The position numbers and the translations under genes were made by a program. The notes under the pieces are model-generated. The model saw only the letters and a list, made by a program, of their open reading frames with translations, searched no databases and had not been told where the DNA came from. 64,000 bases of DNA from Holophagales bacterium (lineage in GTDB: Bacteria; Acidobacteriota; Thermoanaerobaculia; UBA5066), in NCBI GenBank assembly GCA_016714815.1, contig JADKBZ010000014.1, forward strand, positions 83,320 to 147,319, written 5' to 3'. Shown here piece by piece: positions 6,502 to 64,000 of the stretch (position 1 is its first letter; the number at the start of each line of letters is the position of its first letter).

Positions 6502-9116
6502 TCCAGTCCTTCCAGCCGCGCGCGGAGCGAGGCGAGCAGGTTCAGCGCCGCGAGCGGCGTGAGGGTGTCGAGGTCCAGCCTGCGGAGCGCGTCGACGACG
6601 ACCTCCTCCTGGCCGCGGAAAAGGTCGAGCTGGACGTCCGGCGGCGGAGGGGCCCCGGCGTGCTCGGCCAGGCGCGGCCTCCCTCCGACGTCGAGCTGCT
6701 GCTTCTCGAGGTTACGGAGGATCTCTTTCGCCCGGTCGGTCACGACCGCGGGGATCCCCGCGAGCTTGGCCACCTGGACGCCGTAGGAGCGGTCGGCGAC
6801 GCCGTCGACGACTTTCCGGAGGAAGACGACCTCGCCCTTCCACTCCTTCACCGACATCGTCCGGTTCTTCACGCCGGGGCGGACGAGGGCGAGCTCGGTG
6901 AGCTCGTGGTAGTGCGTCGCGAAGAGGACCCGCGCGGGAGCGCCCGGCGCGTCGTGAAGGTGCTCGGCGATCGCCCAGGCGAGCGACAGCCCGTCGAACG
7001 TCGCGGTCCCGCGCCCGATCTCGTCGAGGACGACGAGACTGCGGGGCGTCGCGTGCCGGAGGATGTGCGCCGTCTCGGCCATCTCGGTGAGGAACGTCGA
7101 CTCGCCCCGGGCGAGGGAGTCGGACGCGCCGACGCGGGTGAAGACCCGATCGCAGAGGCCGACCGTCGCCGCCGACGCCGGAACGAACGAGCCCGCGTGC
7201 GCCAGTAGCACGACGAGCGCGTTCTGCCGCAGGTAGGTCGACTTTCCGCCCATGTTCGGCCCCGTCAGGATGACGACGCGCGCCTCCCCTCCCAGCTCCG
7301 TGTCGTTGGGGACGAAGGCCTCGCGGCGGCGTAGCGCCTCGACGACCGGATGCCGCCCGTCCGAGATCGAGAGGACCGGTTCGGCGACGAGGCGAGGCCG
7401 GCACCAGCGTTCCGCCCGTGCCACGCGGGCCAGGGACACGAGGACGTCCAGGAGCGCGAGGCGGGAGGAGAGGGCTCCGACGGCGGCCGCCTCGGCCGTC
7501 GCGGCGGCGCAGAGCTCGCGAAAGATCTCCGCTTCCCGCTCGGCCAGCCTGTCGTCGGCCGAGCGGAGCTTCTCGTCGAGGGCACCGAGCTCGGCCGTCG
7601 CGTAGCGTTCCACCGACGCGAGCGTCTGCCGCTTCACGGCGTCCTCCGGGATCTTCGCCCGCGCGGATCCGGGCACCTCGAAGACGTGCCCGAAGACCTG
7701 GTTGAACTTCACCCGCAGGGTCGGGATCCCTCTGCGGGCGCGCTCGGCGGATTCCAGCGCGCCGAGGAGCGTCGCGGCGTCGAGACGAAGCTTCCGGAGC
7801 TCGTCGACGGTCTCGTCCACGCCGTCGCGGACGAGCCCCCCCTCCTTCGGCGAGACGGGCGGAGCCTCTACGAGCGTCGCGGCGAGGCGGGCCGCGAGGG
7901 CGTCCGGCACGCCCTCGGGATACGCCCCACCGCCGGGTGAGAGGAGCGTGGAGACGGCACCGTCGAGAAGCGGGCCGAGCGCGGCCGCCCGGGCCAGGCC
8001 GAGGCCGAGGGCGGAGAGGTCCCGCGGGGTCGCGTTTCCGACGGCGACCCGGGCAAGGAGACGAGGCAGGTCCGGAAACGTCCCGAGAGCCGCCCCCAGC
8101 GGCTCGAGGCGCGCCGGGCTGGAGACCAGCTCTTCCACCGCGTCGAGGCGTTCCTCGATCGCCTCCCTGCCGCCCAGGGGCTGCTCCAGCACCCGGCGAA
8201 GGGCTCGTGCGCCGAACGGAGTCCCCGTCCGGTCGACGACGGAGAGGAGGGTTCCCGTCCGCCCCCCGTCCCGGAGAGAGCGGAAGAGCTCGAGGTGCCC
8301 CTGCGTCAGGGCGTCGACGACGAGGCCTTCCCCCGCCGACTCGGTCCGCAAGGTCGTCACGTGGGCGCAGTCGGCCTTCTGCGTCGAGCGGGCATAGGCG
8401 AGGACGGCCGCGGCGGCTTCGACGAGCGGGCCCGCGGCGGGGAGCCCGAAGCCGGCGAGGGTGGAGGTGCGGAAGTGCCCTTCGAGGAGGTCGGCCGCGC
8501 TCCGGCCCCTTGGCGACTCGCTGGGGAGGATCGACAGGACCGGGGCCTCGGAGCCGAGCGGCTCGAGCAGGCGCGCCACCGCCTCCCGCTCGGAAGGAAA
8601 TGCGACGAGCTCTTTCGCCGTGCGGCGGGAGAGCATCTCGGCGGGCCCGGTTCCGTCGAGGCGGACCACGGTGAACTCCCCCGTCGAGAGGTCCAGGTAG
8701 GCGAGGGCGGGCGCGTCCGTCGACAGGACGATCGCGGCCAGGTCGTTCGCCTGCCTCGAGTCGAGGCGCTCCGGGTCGACGAGCGTCCCGGGAGTGAGGA
8801 CGCGGACGATCTTCCGGGCGACGAGGGTCTTCCCTTTCTGCGGCGCCTCGGTCTGGTCCGCGATCGCCACCTTGCGGCCGGCCGAGACGAGCCGGGCGAC
8901 GTAGGAATCGAGGGCGTGATGCGGGATGCCGCACATCGGCGCCTCGATGTCGGTGTCGCGGTGACGGGCCGTGAGGACGAGACCGAGAAGGGGCGCGGCC
9001 GCCTCGGCATCCTCGAAGAACATCTCGTAAAAGTCCCCGAGCCTGTAGAGGAGGATCGCGTCCGGGACCTCCCGCTTCAGGGCCCAGTACTGCTCGAGCA
9101 TCGGGGTCGTCCGCAT
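6498..9116 (-). CDS. mutS: DNA mismatch repair protein MutS
   Basis: 872 aa. TPMLEQYWALKREVPDAILLYRLGDFYEMFFEDA is the mismatch-binding domain and LTGPNMGGKSTYLRQ is the Walker A. The ORFs 6712..9408 (-) and 7702..8397 (+) are shadows. Confidence 0.9.
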   Translation of the reverse strand: MRTTPMLEQYWALKREVPDAILLYRLGDFYEMFFEDAEAAAPLLGLVLTARHRDTDIEAPMCGIPHHALDSYVARLVSAGRKVAIADQTEAPQKGKTLVARKIVRVLTPGTLVDPERLDSRQANDLAAIVLSTDAPALAYLDLSTGEFTVVRLDGTGPAEMLSRRTAKELVAFPSEREAVARLLEPLGSEAPVLSILPSESPRGRSAADLLEGHFRTSTLAGFGLPAAGPLVEAAAAVLAYARSTQKADCAHVTTLRTESAGEGLVVDALTQGHLELFRSLRDGGRTGTLLSVVDRTGTPFGARALRRVLEQPLGGREAIEERLDAVEELVSSPARLEPLGAALGTFPDLPRLLARVAVGNATPRDLSALGLGLARAAALGPLLDGAVSTLLSPGGGAYPEGVPDALAARLAATLVEAPPVSPKEGGLVRDGVDETVDELRKLRLDAATLLGALESAERARRGIPTLRVKFNQVFGHVFEVPGSARAKIPEDAVKRQTLASVERYATAELGALDEKLRSADDRLAEREAEIFRELCAAATAEAAAVGALSSRLALLDVLVSLARVARAERWCRPRLVAEPVLSISDGRHPVVEALRRREAFVPNDTELGGEARVVILTGPNMGGKSTYLRQNALVVLLAHAGSFVPASAATVGLCDRVFTRVGASDSLARGESTFLTEMAETAHILRHATPRSLVVLDEIGRGTATFDGLSLAWAIAEHLHDAPGAPARVLFATHYHELTELALVRPGVKNRTMSVKEWKGEVVFLRKVVDGVADRSYGVQVAKLAGIPAVVTDRAKEILRNLEKQQLDVGGRPRLAEHAGAPPPPDVQLDLFRGQEEVVVDALRRLDLDTLTPLAALNLLASLRARLEGLE

Positions 9117-54660: not shown

Positions 54661-55916
54661 TCGAGCTCCCCCCTCTCCAGCAGCCAGCCGCGGATCATCG
54701 CCAGCGCCGCCGACGTCGTCCACCGGCGCACCATAGCGCGGTCGCCCGGGAGAACGAGCCGTTCGTGCCGCCGGCTCCCGTCGGCGGCGGCCAGGGCGAC
54801 GTGGACGGTGCCGACCGGCTTGTCCTCCGTCCCGCCCCCGGGCCCCGCGATTCCGGTCACGCCGACGCCCACCGTGGTCCCGAAGCGGAGCCGAACTCCC
54901 TCGGCCATCTCCCGCGCGACCTCCTCGGAGACCGCGCCGTGCGCCTCGAGGGTGGCGGGCGAGACGCCGAGGATCTCCGACTTCACCACGTTCGCGTAGG
55001 TCACCGCCCCGCCGACGAAGTACGCGGACGAGCCGGCGACGTCGGTGATTCGGGAGGCGACCATCCCGCCGGTGCACGACTCCGCCAGCGCGAGAGTCAG
55101 GCCGGAGCCGGCGAGGAGCGTTCCGACGACCCCCTCGAGAGTCTCGTCATCCCGGCCGAAGAGCGCCGGCCCGACCGCCGAACGGAAATCCGCCTCCAGG
55201 ACGTCGAGCTCCCCGCCGGCCTCCCCGGGTGTCCCTCTCGCGGCGAAGTGGAGCTGGACCTCTCCGGGCGCCACAGCGAGGATCGTGACGTCGTGCCCGC
55301 GGTGCGCCTCGTAGACCGGGCGGACGAGCTCCTCCACCATGCTCTCGCCGAGGCCGACCACCTTCAGCACCCGGCGGTGGAGGCCGGGCGGGGCTCCGCC
55401 GCGCGTCAGGTGCGGAAGGACGCCCTCGGCGAAGACCCCTTTCATCTCCGCGGGCGGCCCGGGGAGGAGGACGATCGTCTTCCCCTCCGCCTCGACGAGG
55501 TAGCCGGGAGCGGTGCCGCGCCGGTTCGGAAGGACGACGGCCCCCTCGATCACGTCGGCCTGCTTGGCGTTCACCTCGGGCATCTCCCGCCCGCGCCTCT
55601 GGAACCGCTCCCTCAGCCGCTGGAGGATCTCCTCGTCGCGGATCAGCTTTCGCCCGAGGAGTGCCGCCACGGCTTCCTTCGTCCGGTCGTCCTCGGTCGG
55701 CCCGAGGCCTCCCGTGACGCAGAGGAGGGGGGCGCGGGTGAGCGCGAAGGAGAGCTCGGCCAGAAGGTCGTCCCAGCCGTCGACGACGCACGCCTTCCTC
55801 ACGACCCGGATCCCGATCGCCTCCAGCTCGCCCGTCAGGAAGAGGGAGTTGGTGTCCACGCGCGTCGTTCCGAGGAGCTCGCTCCCGACGGCGAGAATGG
55901 AAGCGGTTCGGGTCAT
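54657..55916 (-). CDS. cinA: CinA family competence/damage-inducible protein (NMN amidohydrolase PncC plus MocF-like domain)
   Basis: MTRTASILAVGSELLGTTRVDTNSLFLTGELEAIGIRV... is the MoCF-biosynthesis-like N-terminal domain. ...LALAESCTGGMVASRITDVAGSSAYFVGGAVTYAN is the CinA C-terminal deamidase domain. Confidence 0.8.
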   Translation of the reverse strand: MTRTASILAVGSELLGTTRVDTNSLFLTGELEAIGIRVVRKACVVDGWDDLLAELSFALTRAPLLCVTGGLGPTEDDRTKEAVAALLGRKLIRDEEILQRLRERFQRRGREMPEVNAKQADVIEGAVVLPNRRGTAPGYLVEAEGKTIVLLPGPPAEMKGVFAEGVLPHLTRGGAPPGLHRRVLKVVGLGESMVEELVRPVYEAHRGHDVTILAVAPGEVQLHFAARGTPGEAGGELDVLEADFRSAVGPALFGRDDETLEGVVGTLLAGSGLTLALAESCTGGMVASRITDVAGSSAYFVGGAVTYANVVKSEILGVSPATLEAHGAVSEEVAREMAEGVRLRFGTTVGVGVTGIAGPGGGTEDKPVGTVHVALAAADGSRRHERLVLPGDRAMVRRWTTSAALAMIRGWLLERGELD

Positions 55917-57856
55917 GCGGGGACCTCCTGCTCGAGTTTCTGCACGGCCTCTTCCCAGGCCGCCCAACGGGAGTCGAGGGCCTTCTGCGCCTCCTCCCGC
56001 GAGAGGGTCAGCTCCCGCGTCCGCGGCCCGTCCTTCCAGGCGGAGGGCTCCGCGAGCGCGGCGTCGATCTCGCGGATCCGCTCCTCGAGGCGGGCGACCT
56101 CCTCCTCGAGCGCCTCCACCTCGCGGCGCGCCTTCGCGCGCTGCCGGTCTGCCTGACGGTCCGGGCGGCGCACGGCCTTCGGCCCGGGCTCGGCCGGAGC
56201 TGTCCGGACGGGAGCCTGGGCCACGGCCTTCCCGGCCGCCCGGCGCCGCGTGAGCTCGGAAAACCCCCCGGGCCAGAGCGTCGCCTCGCGCCCCTGCACC
56301 TCGAGGACGTGCGTCGCGATCCGGTCGACGAACCAGCGGTCGTGCGAGACGAAAAGAATGGTTCCTTCGAAGTCCAGGAGCGCCTCCTCGAGGCGCTCGC
56401 GCGAGTCGAGGTCGAGGTGGTTCGTCGGCTCGTCGAGGAGGAGGAGATTGGCGCCGCCGAAAACGATGCGGGCGAGGGAGAGGCGCCCCTTCTCGCCCCC
56501 GGAGAGGGTCCCGACCTTCTGTTCCACCTCGTCGCCCCGGAAGTCGAAGAGGGCGAGGAAGTCGCGCGCCTCGACGTCGAGGAGGCTCGGGTCGAGGTCG
56601 CGGACGACGTCGAGGACCGTCCAGGAGGGAGCCAGGTCGCGCATCTCCTGGTCGTAGTAGCCGACGAGGACGCCCGTTCCAAGGGCGGCGCTCCCGGAGA
56701 TCGGAGGCAGGAGGCGGGCCATCGTCTTCAGGAGGGTCGTCTTCCCGCATCCGTTCGGCCCCCAGAGGGCGATCCGCTCGCCGCGGCGCAGGAGGAACGA
56801 GACGGGCGACAGGAGCGGGCCGGTCTCGGGGTAGCCCGGGACGAGGCCCTTCAGCTCGAGGACCCGGTCGCCCGAGGCCCTCGCCTCCTCGAACCGGAAG
56901 AGGACGTCGTTGGCGTCTTCCCGCGGCGCTTCGACCCGCTCGAGCCTGGCGAGCATCTTCCGCCGGGACTGGGCCTGCTTCGTCTTCTGCCCGGCGATGT
57001 TGCGGCGGATGAAGTCCTCGGTCCGCTCGACGAGCTTCCGCTGCTCCTCGGCCGCTTTCGCGCGTATCCGGTCGCGCTCGGCTTTCAGCTTCCGGTAGGC
57101 GTCGTAGTCGCCCGGGTACTCCTCGAGGACCCCGTGGGCCACCTCGACGATCCGGTCGGCGACGGCGTTGAGGAAATGCCGGTCGTGCGAGACGACGAGC
57201 GCGGCCTGCGCCGCCGCGTTCTTCCGTTCCACGAGCCAGGTCTCGAGGAACTCGAGTCCCGCCACGTCGAGGTGGTTCGTCGGCTCGTCGAGCAGAAGGA
57301 CCGACGCGTCGCCGAGGAGGAGGCGCGCGATCTGGGCCCGGTGCTTCTGCCCCCCGGAGAGCTCCCCGACGTGCCGGTCCCACGTCTCGCGGGGCAGGCC
57401 GACGCCGAGGAGCACCCGCTCGACGCGCGCGTCCGCCTCGTAGCCGCCGTTGCGCTCGAAACGCTCGCGGAGCGCGTCGTGCTCGGCGAGAAGCGGCTCG
57501 ACGGACCCTTCGGCCCCGGCCTCGGACGAGGCCGCGATCGCGACCTCGAGGCGGCGCATCTCGGTCTCGAGTCCCCGGAGCCCCGCCTGCGCCCGTGCGA
57601 CGAACTCGCGGAGCGGCTCGTCGCCTTCCGGCTCCACCGCCTGCTCGAGGGAGGCGAAGGTCGTCCCTCCCGCCAGGAGGACACGCCCCGAATCGGGTTC
57701 GACGAGCCCCTGGACGATTCGAAGGAGCGTCGACTTCCCCGCCCCGTTGCGTCCGACGAGGCCGGCGACCCGACCCGGGTCGTGCTGCCACGTGGCACCT
57801 GCGAGAACGGTCTTCTCCCCGAACCCCTTGTGGACGCGCTCGAGCCTGTAGAGCAC
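55913..57856 (-). CDS. ABC-F family ATPase (EttA/Uup-like translation factor), two ABC cassettes
   Basis: GLVGRNGAGKSTLLRIV...LSGGQKHRAQIARLL...LLLDEPTNHLD, and a second cassette LWGPNGCGKTTLLK...LSGGEKGRLSLARIV...LLLDEPTNHLD. A coiled-coil linker and C-terminal arm are present. Confidence 0.85.
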   Translation of the reverse strand: MLYRLERVHKGFGEKTVLAGATWQHDPGRVAGLVGRNGAGKSTLLRIVQGLVEPDSGRVLLAGGTTFASLEQAVEPEGDEPLREFVARAQAGLRGLETEMRRLEVAIAASSEAGAEGSVEPLLAEHDALRERFERNGGYEADARVERVLLGVGLPRETWDRHVGELSGGQKHRAQIARLLLGDASVLLLDEPTNHLDVAGLEFLETWLVERKNAAAQAALVVSHDRHFLNAVADRIVEVAHGVLEEYPGDYDAYRKLKAERDRIRAKAAEEQRKLVERTEDFIRRNIAGQKTKQAQSRRKMLARLERVEAPREDANDVLFRFEEARASGDRVLELKGLVPGYPETGPLLSPVSFLLRRGERIALWGPNGCGKTTLLKTMARLLPPISGSAALGTGVLVGYYDQEMRDLAPSWTVLDVVRDLDPSLLDVEARDFLALFDFRGDEVEQKVGTLSGGEKGRLSLARIVFGGANLLLLDEPTNHLDLDSRERLEEALLDFEGTILFVSHDRWFVDRIATHVLEVQGREATLWPGGFSELTRRRAAGKAVAQAPVRTAPAEPGPKAVRRPDRQADRQRAKARREVEALEEEVARLEERIREIDAALAEPSAWKDGPRTRELTLSREEAQKALDSRWAAWEEAVQKLEQEVPA

Positions 57857-57899
57857 GCGCGGAGGATAACCTCAGAGGTTGTCCGGGCCGGTTCGAACC

Positions 57900-58814
57900 C
57901 TAGGCCGCCACGCCTCCGGAGTCGACGCGGTTGCGCCCCTCCGCCTTGGCTCTGTAGAGCCTCACGTCGGCGGCCTTCAAGAGGTCGGTCGATCCCCGGG
58001 CGTCGCCCGGGAAGCAGGCGACGCCGCCGCTGATCGTGACGCGCCCGAGCGGCTGCGTCTCGCCTCCGGCGAAGTCCATCGCTTCGATGCGGGCCCGCGC
58101 CGTCTCGGCCACCTGCAGCGCTTCCTTGAGCGAGGCGCCGTAGAGGAGGATCACGAACTCCTCGCCCCCGAATCGGGCGACGATGTCGCCCCGGCGGGCG
58201 GTGCCGCGCAGGAGGTCGGAGACCTGGACGAGGACGACGTTCCCGGCCGGGTGGCCGTGGGTGTCGTTGTAGGCCTTGAAGTGGTCGATGTCGAAGAGGA
58301 CGACGCTCACCGCGTCGCGCATCTGGACGGCGCGATCGAGCTCGAGGTCGAGGCGTTCGATGAAGAACCCGTAGTTGTACAGGGACGTGAGCCGGTCGGT
58401 GATGGCCCTGTGCTGGCTCTGGGTCACCATTCGCGAGAGGCTGCGAATCCTCTGGGACTCGATCCGGAAGAGCTCTCCCATGAGGTCCGGCCGGTCGCGG
58501 ATGAAGTCGAGGAACTGCTTGGCGCCGATCGTCCGGATCCGGCAGTCGGTGGCCGCGCGCAGGCCCGCCGAGCGGGCTCCGCCGTCGAGGCAGGCCATCT
58601 CTCCGAGGACGTCGCCAGCGCGCGCCATCCGGAGGACGACGGGCTCGCCGGTCGGAGAGGACTGGAGGATCTCGAACGTCCCCTCCACGAGGAGAACGAC
58701 GGTTTCTCCCTTGGCCCCTTCCTGCCAGAGCTCCTCGCCGGCCTGGACCACGCCCTCGCGTCCGAGCGGCAGGAGCTCCCGGTAGAGATCGTTGACCGCT
58801 TCTGGTGCCCCCAT
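57900..58814 (-). CDS. Cyclic-nucleotide-binding (cNMP/CAP-family) domain fused to a GGDEF diguanylate cyclase
   Basis: N-terminal ...ELWQEGAKGETVVLLVEGTFEIL...ARAGDVLGEMACLDGGARSAGLRAATDCRIRTI is the cNMP-binding beta-roll (G-E-x-A). C-terminal ...VVLFDIDHFKAYNDTHGHPAGNVVLVQVSDLL...RFGGEEFVILL has the GGEEF active site. The first ~535 codons of the track ORF are shadow. Confidence 0.75.
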   Translation of the reverse strand: MGAPEAVNDLYRELLPLGREGVVQAGEELWQEGAKGETVVLLVEGTFEILQSSPTGEPVVLRMARAGDVLGEMACLDGGARSAGLRAATDCRIRTIGAKQFLDFIRDRPDLMGELFRIESQRIRSLSRMVTQSQHRAITDRLTSLYNYGFFIERLDLELDRAVQMRDAVSVVLFDIDHFKAYNDTHGHPAGNVVLVQVSDLLRGTARRGDIVARFGGEEFVILLYGASLKEALQVAETARARIEAMDFAGGETQPLGRVTISGGVACFPGDARGSTDLLKAADVRLYRAKAEGRNRVDSGGVAA

Positions 58815-58880
58815 CAGGTTCCTGTGCCGCCAGTATATCGCTGTGGGGCCGGGCCGGGGTCGGGCGATACACTGAACCGG

Positions 58881-60725
58881 ATGACCGACGAGAGCCTCCT
58901 CGACAAGGCCTTCTCGGCCCCGGAGCCGCAGACGAACCTCGGAGAGGGCAACAGCCTCGTCTCCGGCGAGCTGCTCTCCCGCCTCCGGCACGACATGCGG
59001 ACGCCCATCCACCAGATCCTCGGCTACGCCGAGATGCTGGAGGAGGACGCCATCGCCTCCGGGCAGACCGGCTGGGCCGAGGATCTCGGCAAGATCCAGG
59101 CGGCGACCCGGCGGCTTCTCGGGATGGTCGACGGCCTCCCGGAACGGCTCCTCCCGGAATCGGGCGGAGCCCCCTTCGAAGAGCCCGGCGAGGAGCTCCC
59201 GTCGCCCGATGCGCCGATCCCGGAGGCGCCCCACGACGCCAGGCTGGAAGTGACGGGACCCATCCGGAGGGGAGACGTCGATCTCTCCCCGACGGAACCG
59301 GTCGAGCCCGCCCACCTCCTCGTCGTCGACGACAACGCGGAGAACCGCGAGATGCTCTCGCGCCGACTCCAGGGTCACGGGTTCACGATCGCCGTGGCCG
59401 AGAGCGGACCCGAAGCCCTCCGCCTCCTCGAGGAGACGCCCTTCGACCTCGTCCTCCTGGACGTCGTCATGCCCGGGATGAGCGGTCTCGACGTCCTGCG
59501 TCACCTGCGGCCCCGGCACGCCGCGGCCGACCTGCCCGTCATCATGGCGACCGCCAGGGACGACTCGAACGACGTCGTGACCGCCCTCCGCCTCGGCGCC
59601 AACGACTACGTCACCAAGCCCCTCGACTTCCCCGTCGTCCTCGCCCGGGTCGCGACCCAGCTCACCCTCTCGCGCGCCAAGGCGCGGATCAGCACGCTCG
59701 CGCGGGACCTGGAGGTGAGGAACCGTTTCATCTTCGAGACGTTCGGCCGCTACCTCTCGAACGAAGTCGTCGAGCAGCTCCTGCAGTCGCCGGAAGGCCT
59801 GAAGCTCGGAGGCGAGACGCGCAAGGTGACGCTCCTGATGTCCGACCTCCGGGGCTTCACGCAGCTGGCCGACCGGATCCCTCCCGACCGCGTCGTGAGG
59901 CTCCTGAACAACTACCTGGGCACGATGGTCGACGTCCTCCTCTCGTTCCAGGGGACGATCGACGAGTTCATCGGCGACGCCATCCTCGCCATCTTCGGCG
60001 CCCCCGTGCAGCGCGAGGACGACGCCCTGCGCGCCGTGGCCTGCGCCGTCGAGATGCAGCGCGCCATGGAACGCGTCAACGACTTCAACCGGCGCGAAGG
60101 GCTCCCCGCCGTCGAGATGGGGATCGCGATTCACACCGGCGAGGTCGTCGTCGGCAACATCGGATCGGACAAGCGGGCCAAGTACGGCGTCGTCGGAAGC
60201 CCCGTGAACCTGACCGCGCGGATCGAGTCGTACACGGTCGGCGGGCAGATCCTCGTCAGCGACCGCACCCGCCGGGAAGGCGGCTCCGACCTCTCCGTCG
60301 GAAGCGAGGTCGTCGTGCAGATGAAGGGGTTCGAGAAGCCGGTCTCCGCGTGGGACGTGCGCGGCGTCTCCGGCGGCTTCAACCTCTACCTGCGCGCTCG
60401 CGAGGAAGCGCTCGTTTCCCTCCACGGGCCGCTTCCGGTGCGGTTCGCGACGATCTCCGGCCAGCGCGTCGACGGGCCCGAGTCCGAGGGCCTCCTCGTG
60501 CGGCTCTCGATGAAGGAGGCCGAGATCGAAGCGCGCGAACGGCCCGAGCCCTTCCGGAACCTGAGGCTGCGGTTCGTCGCCCGCGACGGCAGCACGATCG
60601 CCGGAGAGGTCTACGGCAAGGTCTCGACGCCGAAGCTCACCACGAAGGGCTTCGGCCTGAGGTTCACGTCGCTCCCCCCGGAGATCCGCTCCTTCCTCGA
60701 GTCGATCCTGGCCGGGAGCCGCTGA
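58881..60725 (+). CDS. Multidomain signalling protein: HisKA-type phosphoacceptor (no ATPase) - REC receiver - class III adenylyl/guanylyl cyclase - C-terminal PilZ-like domain
   Basis: H-box LRHDMRTPIHQILGYAEMLEED. REC HLLVVDDNAENREMLSRRLQGHGFTIAVAESGPEALRLLEETPFDLVLLDVVMPGMSGLDVLRHLR (DD...D...T...K pattern). Cyclase VTLLMSDLRGFTQLA...GDAILAIFGAP...GIAIHTGEVVVGNIGS..R..YGVVGSPVNLTARIES. C-terminal ...VRLSMKEAEI...LRLRFVARDGSTIAGEVYGKVS...GFGLRFTSLPPEIRSFLESIL is PilZ-like (DxSxxG, GvgveF). Confidence 0.75.
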   Translation: MTDESLLDKAFSAPEPQTNLGEGNSLVSGELLSRLRHDMRTPIHQILGYAEMLEEDAIASGQTGWAEDLGKIQAATRRLLGMVDGLPERLLPESGGAPFEEPGEELPSPDAPIPEAPHDARLEVTGPIRRGDVDLSPTEPVEPAHLLVVDDNAENREMLSRRLQGHGFTIAVAESGPEALRLLEETPFDLVLLDVVMPGMSGLDVLRHLRPRHAAADLPVIMATARDDSNDVVTALRLGANDYVTKPLDFPVVLARVATQLTLSRAKARISTLARDLEVRNRFIFETFGRYLSNEVVEQLLQSPEGLKLGGETRKVTLLMSDLRGFTQLADRIPPDRVVRLLNNYLGTMVDVLLSFQGTIDEFIGDAILAIFGAPVQREDDALRAVACAVEMQRAMERVNDFNRREGLPAVEMGIAIHTGEVVVGNIGSDKRAKYGVVGSPVNLTARIESYTVGGQILVSDRTRREGGSDLSVGSEVVVQMKGFEKPVSAWDVRGVSGGFNLYLRAREEALVSLHGPLPVRFATISGQRVDGPESEGLLVRLSMKEAEIEARERPEPFRNLRLRFVARDGSTIAGEVYGKVSTPKLTTKGFGLRFTSLPPEIRSFLESILAGSR

Positions 60726-60917
60726 GCTTCCCCGACGCCTCCGGCATCCCTGCCCCCCTGGCTATCCGCGCCGGCCTGGAGGCAGCAGATCAGCGCCGGG
60801 GCCGATTCACCGCCACCAGGTCGTCCACGCGGTCGCTTTCCTGACCTGGGAGGCCACAAGCTGTCTTGGAGAGGGCGTCGCCCGCGTCCTGAAGACGCAG
60901 CTGGCGCGGGGAAGGAT

Positions 60918-62741
60918 CTACGGCTTTGGACAGGGTGGGTTCGTCGGACGAGACGCATGGAGCGCGAACAGCTCGAACACCCAGCAGGCGTTCGGATTCG
61001 CGTCCCTCGCCGCGTCGATCTCCGGGGCGAGGCCCGCCATCGTCTCCTCCGTCGTGTCGATACCCAGCCTCGCGTCGTGCAGGTCGGCGTCGAAGGTGAT
61101 CGCCTGCCGGCCTCCCATCGCGAGGCTCCACCGCGGCCACGTCGGCAGGGAGGAGCGCCTCGGGTTCGGGTCGAGCGTCCTCACGAACGAGGCGAGGTAG
61201 TCCATCATCACGCCCTGGAGCGCGACGCGGCCCTCGCGGTTCGCGGGTGTGAACGAGAGGTCCCAGGCGTCGCGGCTGCCGCCCTGAAAGAACGGGACGT
61301 CCATCGAGTGGGCGGCGCCGAAGTAGGTGCCGAAGTCCGCCAGGGCCGGGTCTCCGCCGCCCGACCAGTCGAACCGGTAAGCGTAGACCGCGCGGCGGGC
61401 GTCCGCTGCCGTCAGGCTCCGGGCCAGGTCGTCGACGCCGTACGCCTGCATCAGCCGCGACTTCAGGCTCGCGACGAGGGCGTAGAAGTCCCGGTCGGCC
61501 TGCAAGGGCAGGACGTCGGTCGGGTTCATCCGGGGGCCGACCCCGATGACGTTGAACAGGCTGGCCCACGTGACGCGCGGGTCGCCGGACGGCACGGTCC
61601 CGCCGGAGAGTTCCTTCACGGGATCCCCGTAGACGGGCATGAAGTCCTTCCACTCGTCCCTGGTACTCCCGATCAGGACCGGGACGCGAGCCACCATCCC
61701 GTCCGCGATGGCATCCGCCCAGCTCGCCGTCGGGACGACATAGCCGTCCTGGATCGGCTCGTGAGCGGGCATGAACCCGACCTTCCCGTCAGTGCCGTCC
61801 CTTCGGGCGCGGAGGATCTCCTCGGCCGTCTTGTCCCGCAGGTACACCTCGATCTCTTCGGACTTCATGGCGGCGCGGACCGCCGCCGCTCCCTCTGCAT
61901 CGGACGCCCGCCCGTCGCGGATCAGCAGACCGTCGATCGTTTCATTCGTCATCTCGTCGGCCTCTTCCCGGGTGTACGGGAGCATGCCGAGGCTCTGCAG
62001 GACGGCCCCACGGAAGAGCCCCCTCGAGAGCGGAGAGGCGAGGATGGTCATCGTGTTTCCGGCGCCGGAGGACTGTCCGCCGACGACGACCTTCGCCGGA
62101 TCGCCGCCAAACGCGGAGATGCTCTCCCGGACCCAGCCGAGGGCCTTCAGCTGGTCGAGCGTGCCGTAGTCGCCGGACTTGTCCCTGGCGGAACCGGACT
62201 GGCGAAGGGCCGGATGGGTGAGGAACCCGAGGGCGGAGACCCGGTACTGGATCGTGACGACGACGATGTTCCCGCGTCGGGCGAGACCACCAGGGTCGTA
62301 GTCGGCGACGGAGCCGAAACTGTTCGAGCCGCCGTGGATGAAGACGTAGACCGGGAGGTCCTTCTCGTGGGTCCTGGGCCGATAGACGTTCAGGTAGAGA
62401 CAGTCCTCGCTTCCCGTGAAGGCATCCGAGCTTCTCCAGTACTTGTCGTACACCTGCTGCGCGCACGGGCCGGGATCGGAGGTGGCGTCCCGGACGCCGG
62501 TCCAGGCGACGGGATCGAGCGGAGCCTTCCACCGGAGAGCACCTACCGGCGGCTGGGCGTAGGGGACGCCCTTCCAGACGAGCGTGTGGCCATCGGGCGA
62601 GAAGCCCTGGACGATGCCGAACGGTGTGTGCGCGACCGGCCCGGCCACGTTCGCCCGATCGAGAAGAGATTCCTGGCCCGAGAGCGGTCCCGTCGCCAGA
62701 GTCAGCCAGATCGCCACGGCGGCCAACGGACGTGTTTTCAT
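60918..62741 (-). CDS. Carboxylesterase type B (para-nitrobenzyl esterase / cholinesterase-like), secreted
   Basis: Signal peptide MKTRPLAAVAIWLTLATGPLSGQ. EDCLYLNVYRP. VFIHGGSNSFGS. ...VVVGGQSSGAGNT (GxSxG, Ser nucleophile). Confidence 0.8.
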   Translation of the reverse strand: MKTRPLAAVAIWLTLATGPLSGQESLLDRANVAGPVAHTPFGIVQGFSPDGHTLVWKGVPYAQPPVGALRWKAPLDPVAWTGVRDATSDPGPCAQQVYDKYWRSSDAFTGSEDCLYLNVYRPRTHEKDLPVYVFIHGGSNSFGSVADYDPGGLARRGNIVVVTIQYRVSALGFLTHPALRQSGSARDKSGDYGTLDQLKALGWVRESISAFGGDPAKVVVGGQSSGAGNTMTILASPLSRGLFRGAVLQSLGMLPYTREEADEMTNETIDGLLIRDGRASDAEGAAAVRAAMKSEEIEVYLRDKTAEEILRARRDGTDGKVGFMPAHEPIQDGYVVPTASWADAIADGMVARVPVLIGSTRDEWKDFMPVYGDPVKELSGGTVPSGDPRVTWASLFNVIGVGPRMNPTDVLPLQADRDFYALVASLKSRLMQAYGVDDLARSLTAADARRAVYAYRFDWSGGGDPALADFGTYFGAAHSMDVPFFQGGSRDAWDLSFTPANREGRVALQGVMMDYLASFVRTLDPNPRRSSLPTWPRWSLAMGGRQAITFDADLHDARLGIDTTEETMAGLAPEIDAARDANPNACWVFELFALHASRPTNPPCPKP

Positions 62742-63433: not shown

Positions 63434-63802
63434 TCAGCCGGGAGAGAGGAACGTCTCGACCTTGCCGAGGAGACGAGGCAGCTCGACCGGCTTGGTGTCG
63501 TAGTCGTCGCAGCCGGCCGCGAGCGCCTTCTCCCGGTCGCCCACCATGGCGTGTGCCGAGAGCCCGATGATCGGGATTGCGGCCGTGTCCGCGTCCGCCT
63601 TCAACCGGCGTGTCGCCTCGTAACCGTCGAGGACCGGCATCGACAGGTCCATCAGGATCAGCTCGGGCCGGTCGGATACGGTTCTGTCGATGGCCTCGGC
63701 ACCGTTGACGGCGAGAATGACCTCGTACCCCTTCCGCAGAAGCCTGCGGGAGAGCATGTCGCGGTTCATTTCATCGTCATCGACGACCAGGATTTTCGGC
63801 AT
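63434..63802 (-). CDS. Single-domain response regulator (CheY-like receiver)
   Basis: MPKILVVDDDEMNRDMLSRRLLRKGYEVILAVNGAEAIDRTVSDRPELILMDLSMPVLDGYEATRRLKAD...IPIIGLSAHAMVGDREKALAAGCDDYDTKP is the full D-D-T-K receiver signature. It may start at an upstream GTG that is translationally coupled to a partial ORF leaving the window. Confidence 0.75.
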   Translation of the reverse strand: MPKILVVDDDEMNRDMLSRRLLRKGYEVILAVNGAEAIDRTVSDRPELILMDLSMPVLDGYEATRRLKADADTAAIPIIGLSAHAMVGDREKALAAGCDDYDTKPVELPRLLGKVETFLSPG

Positions 63803-64000
63803 CTGAGTCTCGCCAGACCGCCCTTCGGGCAGCCCGAAGGAGTGTAACGCCACTCATTCTTGACAGCACGCGAGGCCTGACCTACCGTCGCCGCGGAGCG
63901 CATCTTCATGGCCTTCTCGTGGCTTTCGGGAGGCGACGACGTCGCCGAGCTCATCTCGAAGAGGAACTACTCCCGCGCGGCGAAAGTCCTCCGCGGCCAG

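Follow-up and report, generated by a model that had tools for sequence, protein, structure and literature searches.

A divergent gene pair in Holophagales suggests a one-way cGMP to c-di-GMP relay under phosphorelay control and places a PilZ-fold tail on Cya2-type cyclases

We analyzed a 64,000-nt stretch of DNA from a Holophagales bacterium (contig JADKBZ010000014.1; the whole stretch is referred to here as the window) for a pair of divergently transcribed signaling genes, which we call A and B. A encodes a diguanylate cyclase, the type of enzyme that makes cyclic di-GMP (c-di-GMP), joined to a domain that binds cyclic nucleoside monophosphates (cNMP). B encodes a class III nucleotidyl cyclase with two-component domains ahead of it and a further domain behind it. 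The GC content of the window is about 70%, and spurious long open reading frames (ORFs) overlap the true genes. A and B are real genes, each with hundreds of full-length homologues, and the product of B was 100% identical to a database protein, P0001, annotated as a response regulator of a Holophagales bacterium (an Acidobacteriota metagenome-assembled genome). The two genes, the region between them and the domains of their products are as follows.

57900 to 58814, minus strand: gene A, 304 aa, cNMP-binding plus GGDEF diguanylate cyclase.
About 58497 to 58748, minus strand: cNMP-binding (CNB) domain of A, residues 23-106; Pfam cNMP_binding, E 1.3e-17.
About 57927 to 58406, minus strand: GGDEF domain of A, residues 137-296; Pfam GGDEF, E 1.8e-41; TIGR00254, E 1.3e-49.
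58815 to 58880, no strand: divergent intergenic region between A and B, exactly 66 nt.
58832 to 58841 (AGTATATCGC) and 58864 to 58873 (GCGATACACT), no strand: inverted pair of -10-like boxes in the spacer, from orthologue alignment.
58881 to 60725, plus strand: gene B, 614 aa, HisKA (DHp only, no ATPase), REC, predicted Cya2-type guanylyl cyclase and PilZ-fold C-terminal domain.
58965 to 59135, plus strand: HisKA/DHp domain of B, residues 29-85; Pfam E 4.4e-10, 39.9 bits against a cut-off of 26.9; H-box RH37DMRTP.
59319 to 59651, plus strand: receiver domain of B, residues 147-257; Pfam Response_reg, E 1.2e-29.
59817 to 60329, plus strand: class III cyclase catalytic domain of B, residues 313-483; Pfam Guanylate_cyc (PF00211), E 2e-22.
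60351 to 60725, plus strand: PilZ-fold C-terminal domain of B, residues 491-614; homologue of the Cya2 extension, canonical c-di-GMP motifs absent.

This outline agrees with the original prediction, made from the DNA alone, in three respects: the pair is divergent over a 66-nt spacer with the coordinates claimed, A matches both the cNMP-binding and the GGDEF family in Pfam, and Pfam likewise finds in B a HisKA domain without HATPase, then REC, then a class III cyclase. The same prediction went on to read the pair as a reciprocal circuit, in which B would be an adenylyl cyclase feeding A and would itself be regulated by the c-di-GMP that A makes. It was in this second part, the identity of the messenger and the existence of a return arm, that our analysis led to a different view.

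The sequence of A suggests that it is apparently an active diguanylate cyclase. Its phosphate-binding cassette is intact (GEMAC...ARSAG from residue 71, with G71-E72 and R81-S82-A83), the GGDEF active site reads GGEEF at residue 216, and an RxxD inhibitory site (I-site), RRGD at residue 207, stands five residues upstream. Among the 120 A homologues listed, the RSA of the cassette was kept in 117, and GGEEF and the I-site in 115 each. All 120 had the same architecture, and with 7,792 matches, proteins of about 300 aa that combine CNB and GGDEF are abundant. The description of A as a synthase gated by cAMP or cGMP is thus in keeping with the intact cassette, active site and I-site, but the messenger predicted for this locus is cGMP (cyclic GMP) and not cAMP.

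That prediction comes from the cyclase of B. Its closest solved relative is Synechocystis Cya2 (PDB 2W01), which it matched at E 7.3e-66 without a gap over about 200 (202) residues, and residues E362, D366, G436, N443, R447 and K482 of B correspond to E488, D492, G562, N569, R573 and K608 of Cya2 at a constant offset of 126. D322 of B lies in the conserved motif of the first metal-binding Asp, D366 is the second metal Asp, and N443 and R447 are the transition-state residues. An FGRY transducer motif stands at residue 288, ahead of the catalytic domain. Cya2, the founding member of the bacterial guanylyl cyclases, owes its choice of GTP to E488 and G562, and the single change E488K makes it an adenylyl cyclase (PMC6005667; PMC5995499). 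In B this Glu-Gly specificity pair is E362, within TIDEFIGD, and G436, within KYGVVG, and the two residues were kept in 111-112 of the 120 closest members of the B family. Because B carries the Cya2 Glu-Gly pair together with all the catalytic residues, we infer that it is of the guanylyl type, with cGMP rather than cAMP as the predicted product.

It remains conceivable, though we consider it improbable, that B is an adenylyl or a dual-specificity cyclase and that the relay runs on cAMP. The Pfam family PF00211 does not tell adenylyl from guanylyl cyclases, and database names of B homologues read "adenylate cyclase". Prediction from the two specificity residues also fails for some bacterial cyclases, and the Xanthomonas campestris cyclase XC_0250 itself has atypical residues (PMC3770947). 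What speaks against this alternative, and against the adenylyl cyclase of the original prediction, is that Glu362 and Gly436 are identical to the GTP-selecting pair of Cya2 in a domain that matches Cya2 so closely, that the GTP preference of Cya2 has been measured, and that adenylyl activity there requires the change from Glu to Lys.

We then considered what might control the cyclase. The receiver of B has all its expected residues (D150/D151, the phospho-acceptor D194, T224 and K246), and the H-box of the HisKA domain was present in 105 of the 120 B homologues listed. No HATPase_c domain was found in B with Pfam at E<=1, and a Pro/Glu-rich linker runs from HisKA to REC. By its domain content B is not a histidine kinase, since without an ATPase domain it could not autophosphorylate. 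A class III cyclase under receiver phosphorylation has a counterpart in cyanobacterial CyaC, which contains a complete histidine kinase with its ATPase domain; like CyaC, B couples a receiver to a class III cyclase, but unlike CyaC it has the DHp helix pair only. Nor is the HisKA-REC-cyclase fusion the novelty that had been claimed, as it belongs to a large family and all 120 of the B homologues listed share the architecture. One protein of the family, P0484, has an Hpt domain exactly at the place of the HisKA-only domain of B.

The C-terminal domain of B had been called PilZ-like, and this held for its fold but not for its binding motifs. We built an alignment and profile (A1) from the last 124 residues of B across the whole family. 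The AlphaFold2 model of the domain on this alignment had a predicted local distance difference test score (pLDDT) of 87.6 and consisted of six strands and a C-terminal helix. When the model was compared with the PDB by Foldseek, the 33 best matches were all PilZ domains (Alg44, MapZ, BcsA, YcgR, VCA0042 and others), the best at E 5.6e-5. A search of PDB sequences with the A1 profile found no PilZ domain and nothing else significant. With Pfam, PilZ matched 22 of 31 representative family members at E<=10, most of them with 14-22 bits against a cut-off of 22.5 and one of them with 27.2 bits, and only isolated relatives exceeded the cut-off, a further one at 25.5 bits; the window copy had no match to Pfam PilZ (PF07238) at E<=10. 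PilZ kinship was thus revealed only by fold comparison and by the Pfam hidden Markov model on relatives, and by these two methods the predicted domain is a PilZ fold.

The residues through which PilZ domains recognize c-di-GMP are another matter. The Pfam matches in relatives begin at profile positions 8-19 and leave the RxxxR segment unmatched. There is no RxxxR in the window domain, where LHGPLP stands in its place, and no conserved Arg pair was found in 189 non-redundant domains. We checked 154 representatives of clusters at 50% identity: an RxxxR was present in the linker of 11 of them, scattered, and [D/N]xSxxG in none; the window reads RLSMKE at the place of the latter motif. Two positions ahead of the conserved Ser the domains have R, K, A or Q, with K or R in 98 of the 154 and D or N in none. 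What the domain has kept is the hydrophobic h residue, the Ser and often the Gly of the second motif, and the Phe of the last strand, and it has an invariant set specific to the family (Y88, K90, V91 and T106 in domain numbering). PilZ domains without both motifs have been reported as not binding c-di-GMP (Galperin and Chou, 10.1101/814665), and the tail of B resembles these non-binding variants.

The identity of the domain became clearer from Cya2. In the Cya2 fragment P0138, which is 100% identical to the crystallised part, the A1 profile matched residues 128-252 with 80 bits, and by this match the C-terminal domain of B is homologous to the C-terminal extension of Cya2. That extension, of 118 residues, has been called structurally uncharacterised, and constructs without it had very low or undetectable activity (Etzl et al. 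2018, PMC5995499). The assays in which it raised activity contained no added c-di-GMP (PMC5995499). Our literature search found no paper linking the Cya2 extension to PilZ, and none of relevance on a PilZ-cyclase fusion.

We observed the domain in 1,665 proteins at E<=0.001 among 1.84 billion representatives, and in each of the 10 full-length representatives scanned it followed Guanylate_cyc. The modules ahead of the cyclase and its PilZ-fold tail varied: CHASE2, Cache-HAMP-PAS, Ser/Thr kinase-GAF, HK-REC-Hpt-REC, a lone REC, or Lactamase_B-HisKA-REC. The domain also accompanied the cyclase in lineages without a GGDEF neighbor. Judged from these profile matches, the tail is common on the clade of Cya2-type cyclases, rather than outside the usual toolkit as had been supposed, and it has remained unannotated because it falls below the Pfam threshold. 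It has been inherited with the Cya2-type cyclase module and does not belong to the A-B pair as such. Most likely, the domain intrinsically supports the activity of the cyclase, and the canonical c-di-GMP site was either lost from it or never present.

Several relatives illustrate how varied the input to this module can be. P0484 (1,494 aa) has a complete HisKA-HATPase-REC(x4)-Hpt relay ending in the cyclase and PilZ-fold module, and P0445 (1,838 aa) has a Ser/Thr kinase, a STAND ATPase and a GAF domain with the same module at its end. In the Vicinamibacteria-type relatives (P0362, P0063, P0082 and P0118; loci L081-L084), a gene for a Lactamase_B_2 metallo-hydrolase and the start of the B homologue share 4 nt, and in some proteins of this type Lactamase_B_2 is fused to the N-terminus of HisKA-REC-cyclase. 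The Lactamase_B_2 gene always lies downstream of a cassette of extracytoplasmic function (ECF) sigma factor, anti-sigma factor and DUF4097. Lactamase_B_2 is a different input module for the same cyclase.

These results bear on the reciprocal loop, in which the cNMP made by B would activate A and the c-di-GMP made by A would regulate B through the PilZ domain. The fold itself, the relatives that approach or reach the Pfam threshold, the retained h residue, Ser, Gly and Phe, and the presence of an apparently active diguanylate cyclase next door all fit such a loop. Nevertheless, we consider it very unlikely: the window copy escapes Pfam PilZ, the RxxxR segment is unmatched in relatives and RxxxR itself rare and scattered, D or N never precedes the Ser, PilZ domains lacking these motifs reportedly do not bind the ligand, the domain travels with the cyclase where no GGDEF gene is adjacent, and in Cya2 it stimulates activity without c-di-GMP. 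The arm from c-di-GMP back to the cyclase was accordingly dropped from our account of the locus. A variant of the idea is that the degenerate PilZ-fold domain of every Cya2-type cyclase is an allosteric ligand site built from its own invariant residues, which in the Holophagales island would close the loop with the diguanylate cyclase. Such a site may consist of the GD-x-Y-x-K-V and R-F-T-S motifs and the basic residue at the place of the PilZ D/N, and its ligand may be c-di-GMP, cGMP or GTP. We regard this as a long shot.

We next turned to the genes around the pair, of which the following were assigned.

53659 to about 54700, minus strand: GpsA (glycerol-3-phosphate dehydrogenase), upstream of A.
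54657 to about 55900, minus strand: CinA-family protein, upstream of A.
55913 to 57856, minus strand: ABC-F ATPase, upstream of A.
60918 to 62741, minus strand: secreted-type carboxylesterase, COesterase E 7e-83, between B and the stand-alone receiver gene.
63434 to 63802, minus strand: stand-alone receiver gene, 122 aa; Pfam Response_reg, E 8.9e-25.
63908 to 64000, plus strand, running off the window end: TPR and cNMP-binding protein, 341 aa in full (6904-7929 of locus L091).

The divergent adjacency of A and B was kept in about 15 species-level genomes of Holophagales/Thermoanaerobaculia (loci L001-L012, L022, L080, L091 and L092). In L001-L012 and L022, B was 79-89% identical and A was the divergent neighbor; the most distant kept pair was that of L080, with B at 67% and A at 61% identity. 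The pairing of A with B is specific to one clade; the two are conserved neighbors within that clade and not in more distant relatives.

The conserved unit is larger than the pair and consists of four genes: A, B, the stand-alone REC and the TPR-CNB protein. The REC gene adjoins B in all close relatives, in L080 (7835-8209), in L085 (5627-6004) and in L014, and a hybrid histidine kinase accompanies REC beside B in L080 and L085, two distant lineages. We had looked at the identity of the stand-alone receiver (68-84% across phyla) as a signal of a specific partner, and dropped it; receivers of the same subtype, 55-70% identical, occur at many unrelated loci. The TPR-CNB gene keeps its place in the island, L080 and L092 included, with identities of 60-82%. 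The part inside the window translates to MAFSWLSGGDD..., exactly as the L091 gene does at its start. In full, the L091 protein has a Pfam cNMP_binding match at E 2.1e-22 in addition to TPR; its FGE...RSA cassette is intact, and no output domain could be recognised in it. On this domain content it is a second candidate receptor for the product of B.

Between B and the REC gene the window has the carboxylesterase and, reaching up to about 63200, an ORF of 77 aa. Both were present in L090 and L091 and absent from L092 and L080, and they look like a recent insertion into the signaling island. In L080 a CHASE8 hybrid kinase is inserted on the same side of B as the carboxylesterase in the window.

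On the other side of B, the 66-nt spacer has conserved features of its own. Alignment with 13-14 orthologous intergenic regions showed that both boxes, AGTATATCGC and GCGATACACT, are conserved while the spacer between them is variable, and by their sequence they resemble two -10 boxes placed back to back. Only 7 nt lie between the end of TACACT and the ATG of B, and because TACACT is so near, the mRNA of B may be leaderless. A generic sigma-70 and terminator scan of 57700-61000 called no promoter and did not detect the boxes; it returned one terminator-like site, at chance level.

Taken together, we propose that the four-gene island passes a signal one way, from cGMP to c-di-GMP, under the control of a phosphorelay, and assign this reading a rough probability of 0.6. 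In this relay, D194 of the B receiver would be phosphorylated by an outside donor, and the DHp domain with H37 would probably act both as a bundle for dimerisation and as a site of phosphotransfer or phosphatase activity. Phosphorylation of D194 would switch the cyclase dimer through the FGRY transducer, with the PilZ-fold tail needed for dimer activity. The cGMP made by B would then bind the CNB domain of A and raise its diguanylate cyclase activity, while the RxxD I-site of A would limit its synthesis of c-di-GMP. The neighboring TPR-CNB protein would probably read cGMP as well. That A reads the cNMP made by B, as the original prediction had it, is plausible and has a precedent in Xanthomonas, but with cGMP rather than cAMP as the predicted messenger.

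A number of observations weigh against the proposed relay. Outside the clade, neither the A homologues nor the B homologues examined keep the other as a neighbor. The Vicinamibacteria-type relatives of B (52-57% identical) lie in the ECF sigma, anti-sigma, DUF4097 and Lactamase_B_2 context, and P0038 (54% identical; L085, Entotheonellia/Tectomicrobia-like) lies with FIST, a PAS hybrid kinase and REC; A homologues at 70% and at about 55% identity have no cyclase nearby. Within the clade, GpsA, CinA, ABC-F and thymidine phosphorylase are syntenic in the same genomes, and the order of ABC-F, CinA and GpsA in the window is that of L080 and L092, so the region is collinear in the clade. Because the whole region, housekeeping genes included, is collinear, the conserved adjacency is partly plain inheritance. 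The island of the window clade also contains no histidine kinase. As for A, its cassette has Arg then Ser (RSA), the form seen in cAMP-binding CRP, and its preference for cGMP or cAMP is not readable from its sequence, as CRP, PKA, PKG and Bd1971 matched its CNB domain at similar E-values in a PDB search. The guanine-reading N145/E146 dyad on the C-helix of XC_0249, the Xanthomonas counterpart of A, seems to be missing from A: its position falls on L126/S127, as placed by offset from the Glu of the phosphate-binding cassette only and not by alignment.

In a rival reading A and B are independent, with the cGMP of B going to other receptors (the TPR-CNB protein or distant ones), A sensing the cAMP of another cyclase, and the adjacency simply inherited. 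The collinearity of the region, the different neighbors of distant A (70% and 55%) and B (52-54%) homologues, the abundance of CNB-GGDEF proteins and the CRP-like RSA of A all speak for it, and we hold this alternative to be unlikely, though a real contender. Two lines of evidence favor functional coupling over independence. The A-B junction and both boxes have been preserved, whereas insertions have occurred on the far side of B, the carboxylesterase in one case and the hybrid histidine kinase of L080 in the other. Further, the 64-kb window contains no class III cyclase other than B, and the only two CNB genes in the window lie one on either side of B. The same logic has, in addition, been experimentally validated in Xanthomonas (PMC3770947).

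In that system, which is the closest to the proposed relay, cGMP from X. campestris XC_0250 binds the CNB domain of XC_0249 and raises c-di-GMP synthesis, and the two genes are adjacent (An et al. 2013, PMC3770947). As there, a class III cyclase gene adjoins a cNMP-GGDEF gene in the window, and A has the two-domain architecture of XC_0249. The cyclases belong to different families. XC_0250 (886 aa) combines its cyclase domain with TPR and has atypical residues A150, L157 and A161, whereas B, as compared with the published description of XC_0250, is of the Cya2 type with canonical Asn/Arg and the Glu-Gly pair, and has a DHp-REC input and a PilZ-fold tail. The Holophagales island has a second CNB protein and a REC that the Xanthomonas pair does not, and the phylum is Acidobacteriota here as opposed to Gammaproteobacteria. 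The link from cGMP to c-di-GMP is itself already known from Xanthomonas and is not a new kind of regulatory module. A dedicated reciprocal two-gene loop as a new module, which had been the main claim made for this locus, thus loses both its return arm, which is unsupported, and the novelty of its forward arm.

Other known proteins share parts of the design. B has the FGRY motif, the Glu-Gly pair and the C-terminal domain of about 120 aa in common with Cya2 (PDB 2W01; Rauch et al. 2008; Etzl et al. 2018, PMC5995499), but Cya2 sits in the membrane and has a CHASE2 sensor, while B is cytoplasmic with a DHp-REC input. With the canonical PilZ receptors (Alg44, MapZ, YcgR and BcsA) the tail of B shares the six-stranded beta-barrel and C-terminal helix as well as the h residue, Ser and last-strand Phe; unlike them it lacks RxxxR and the D/N of the second motif, has invariant residues of its own and is fused to a cyclase. 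Convergence of cNMP and c-di-GMP signaling is also known from Bd1971 (CNB-EAL), Lcd1 (GAF-GGDEF) and Tlr0485 (GAF-HD-GYP) (PMC8846402). Like these, A fuses a sensor of cyclic mononucleotides directly to a c-di-GMP enzyme; unlike the A-B pair, they are single proteins, mainly responsive to cAMP, and no dedicated cyclase encoded next to any of them has been described (PMC8846402).

Bacterial cGMP signaling is known from only a handful of systems. If our reading is true, the Holophagales island would be a case, independent of Xanthomonas and in another phylum, of cGMP signaling being relayed to c-di-GMP, with a different cyclase family and under two-component control. Optogenetic fusions of Cya2 require its C-terminal extension in order to be active; our analysis gives this extension a predicted PilZ fold that lacks the c-di-GMP motifs, and a family of about 1,665 protein clusters can be defined by it. 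The HisKA domain without an ATPase, at a place where related proteins carry Hpt, points to a DHp-based phosphotransfer step. These two results, the assignment of the Cya2 extension and the ATPase-less HisKA, may prove more useful than the A-B pair itself.

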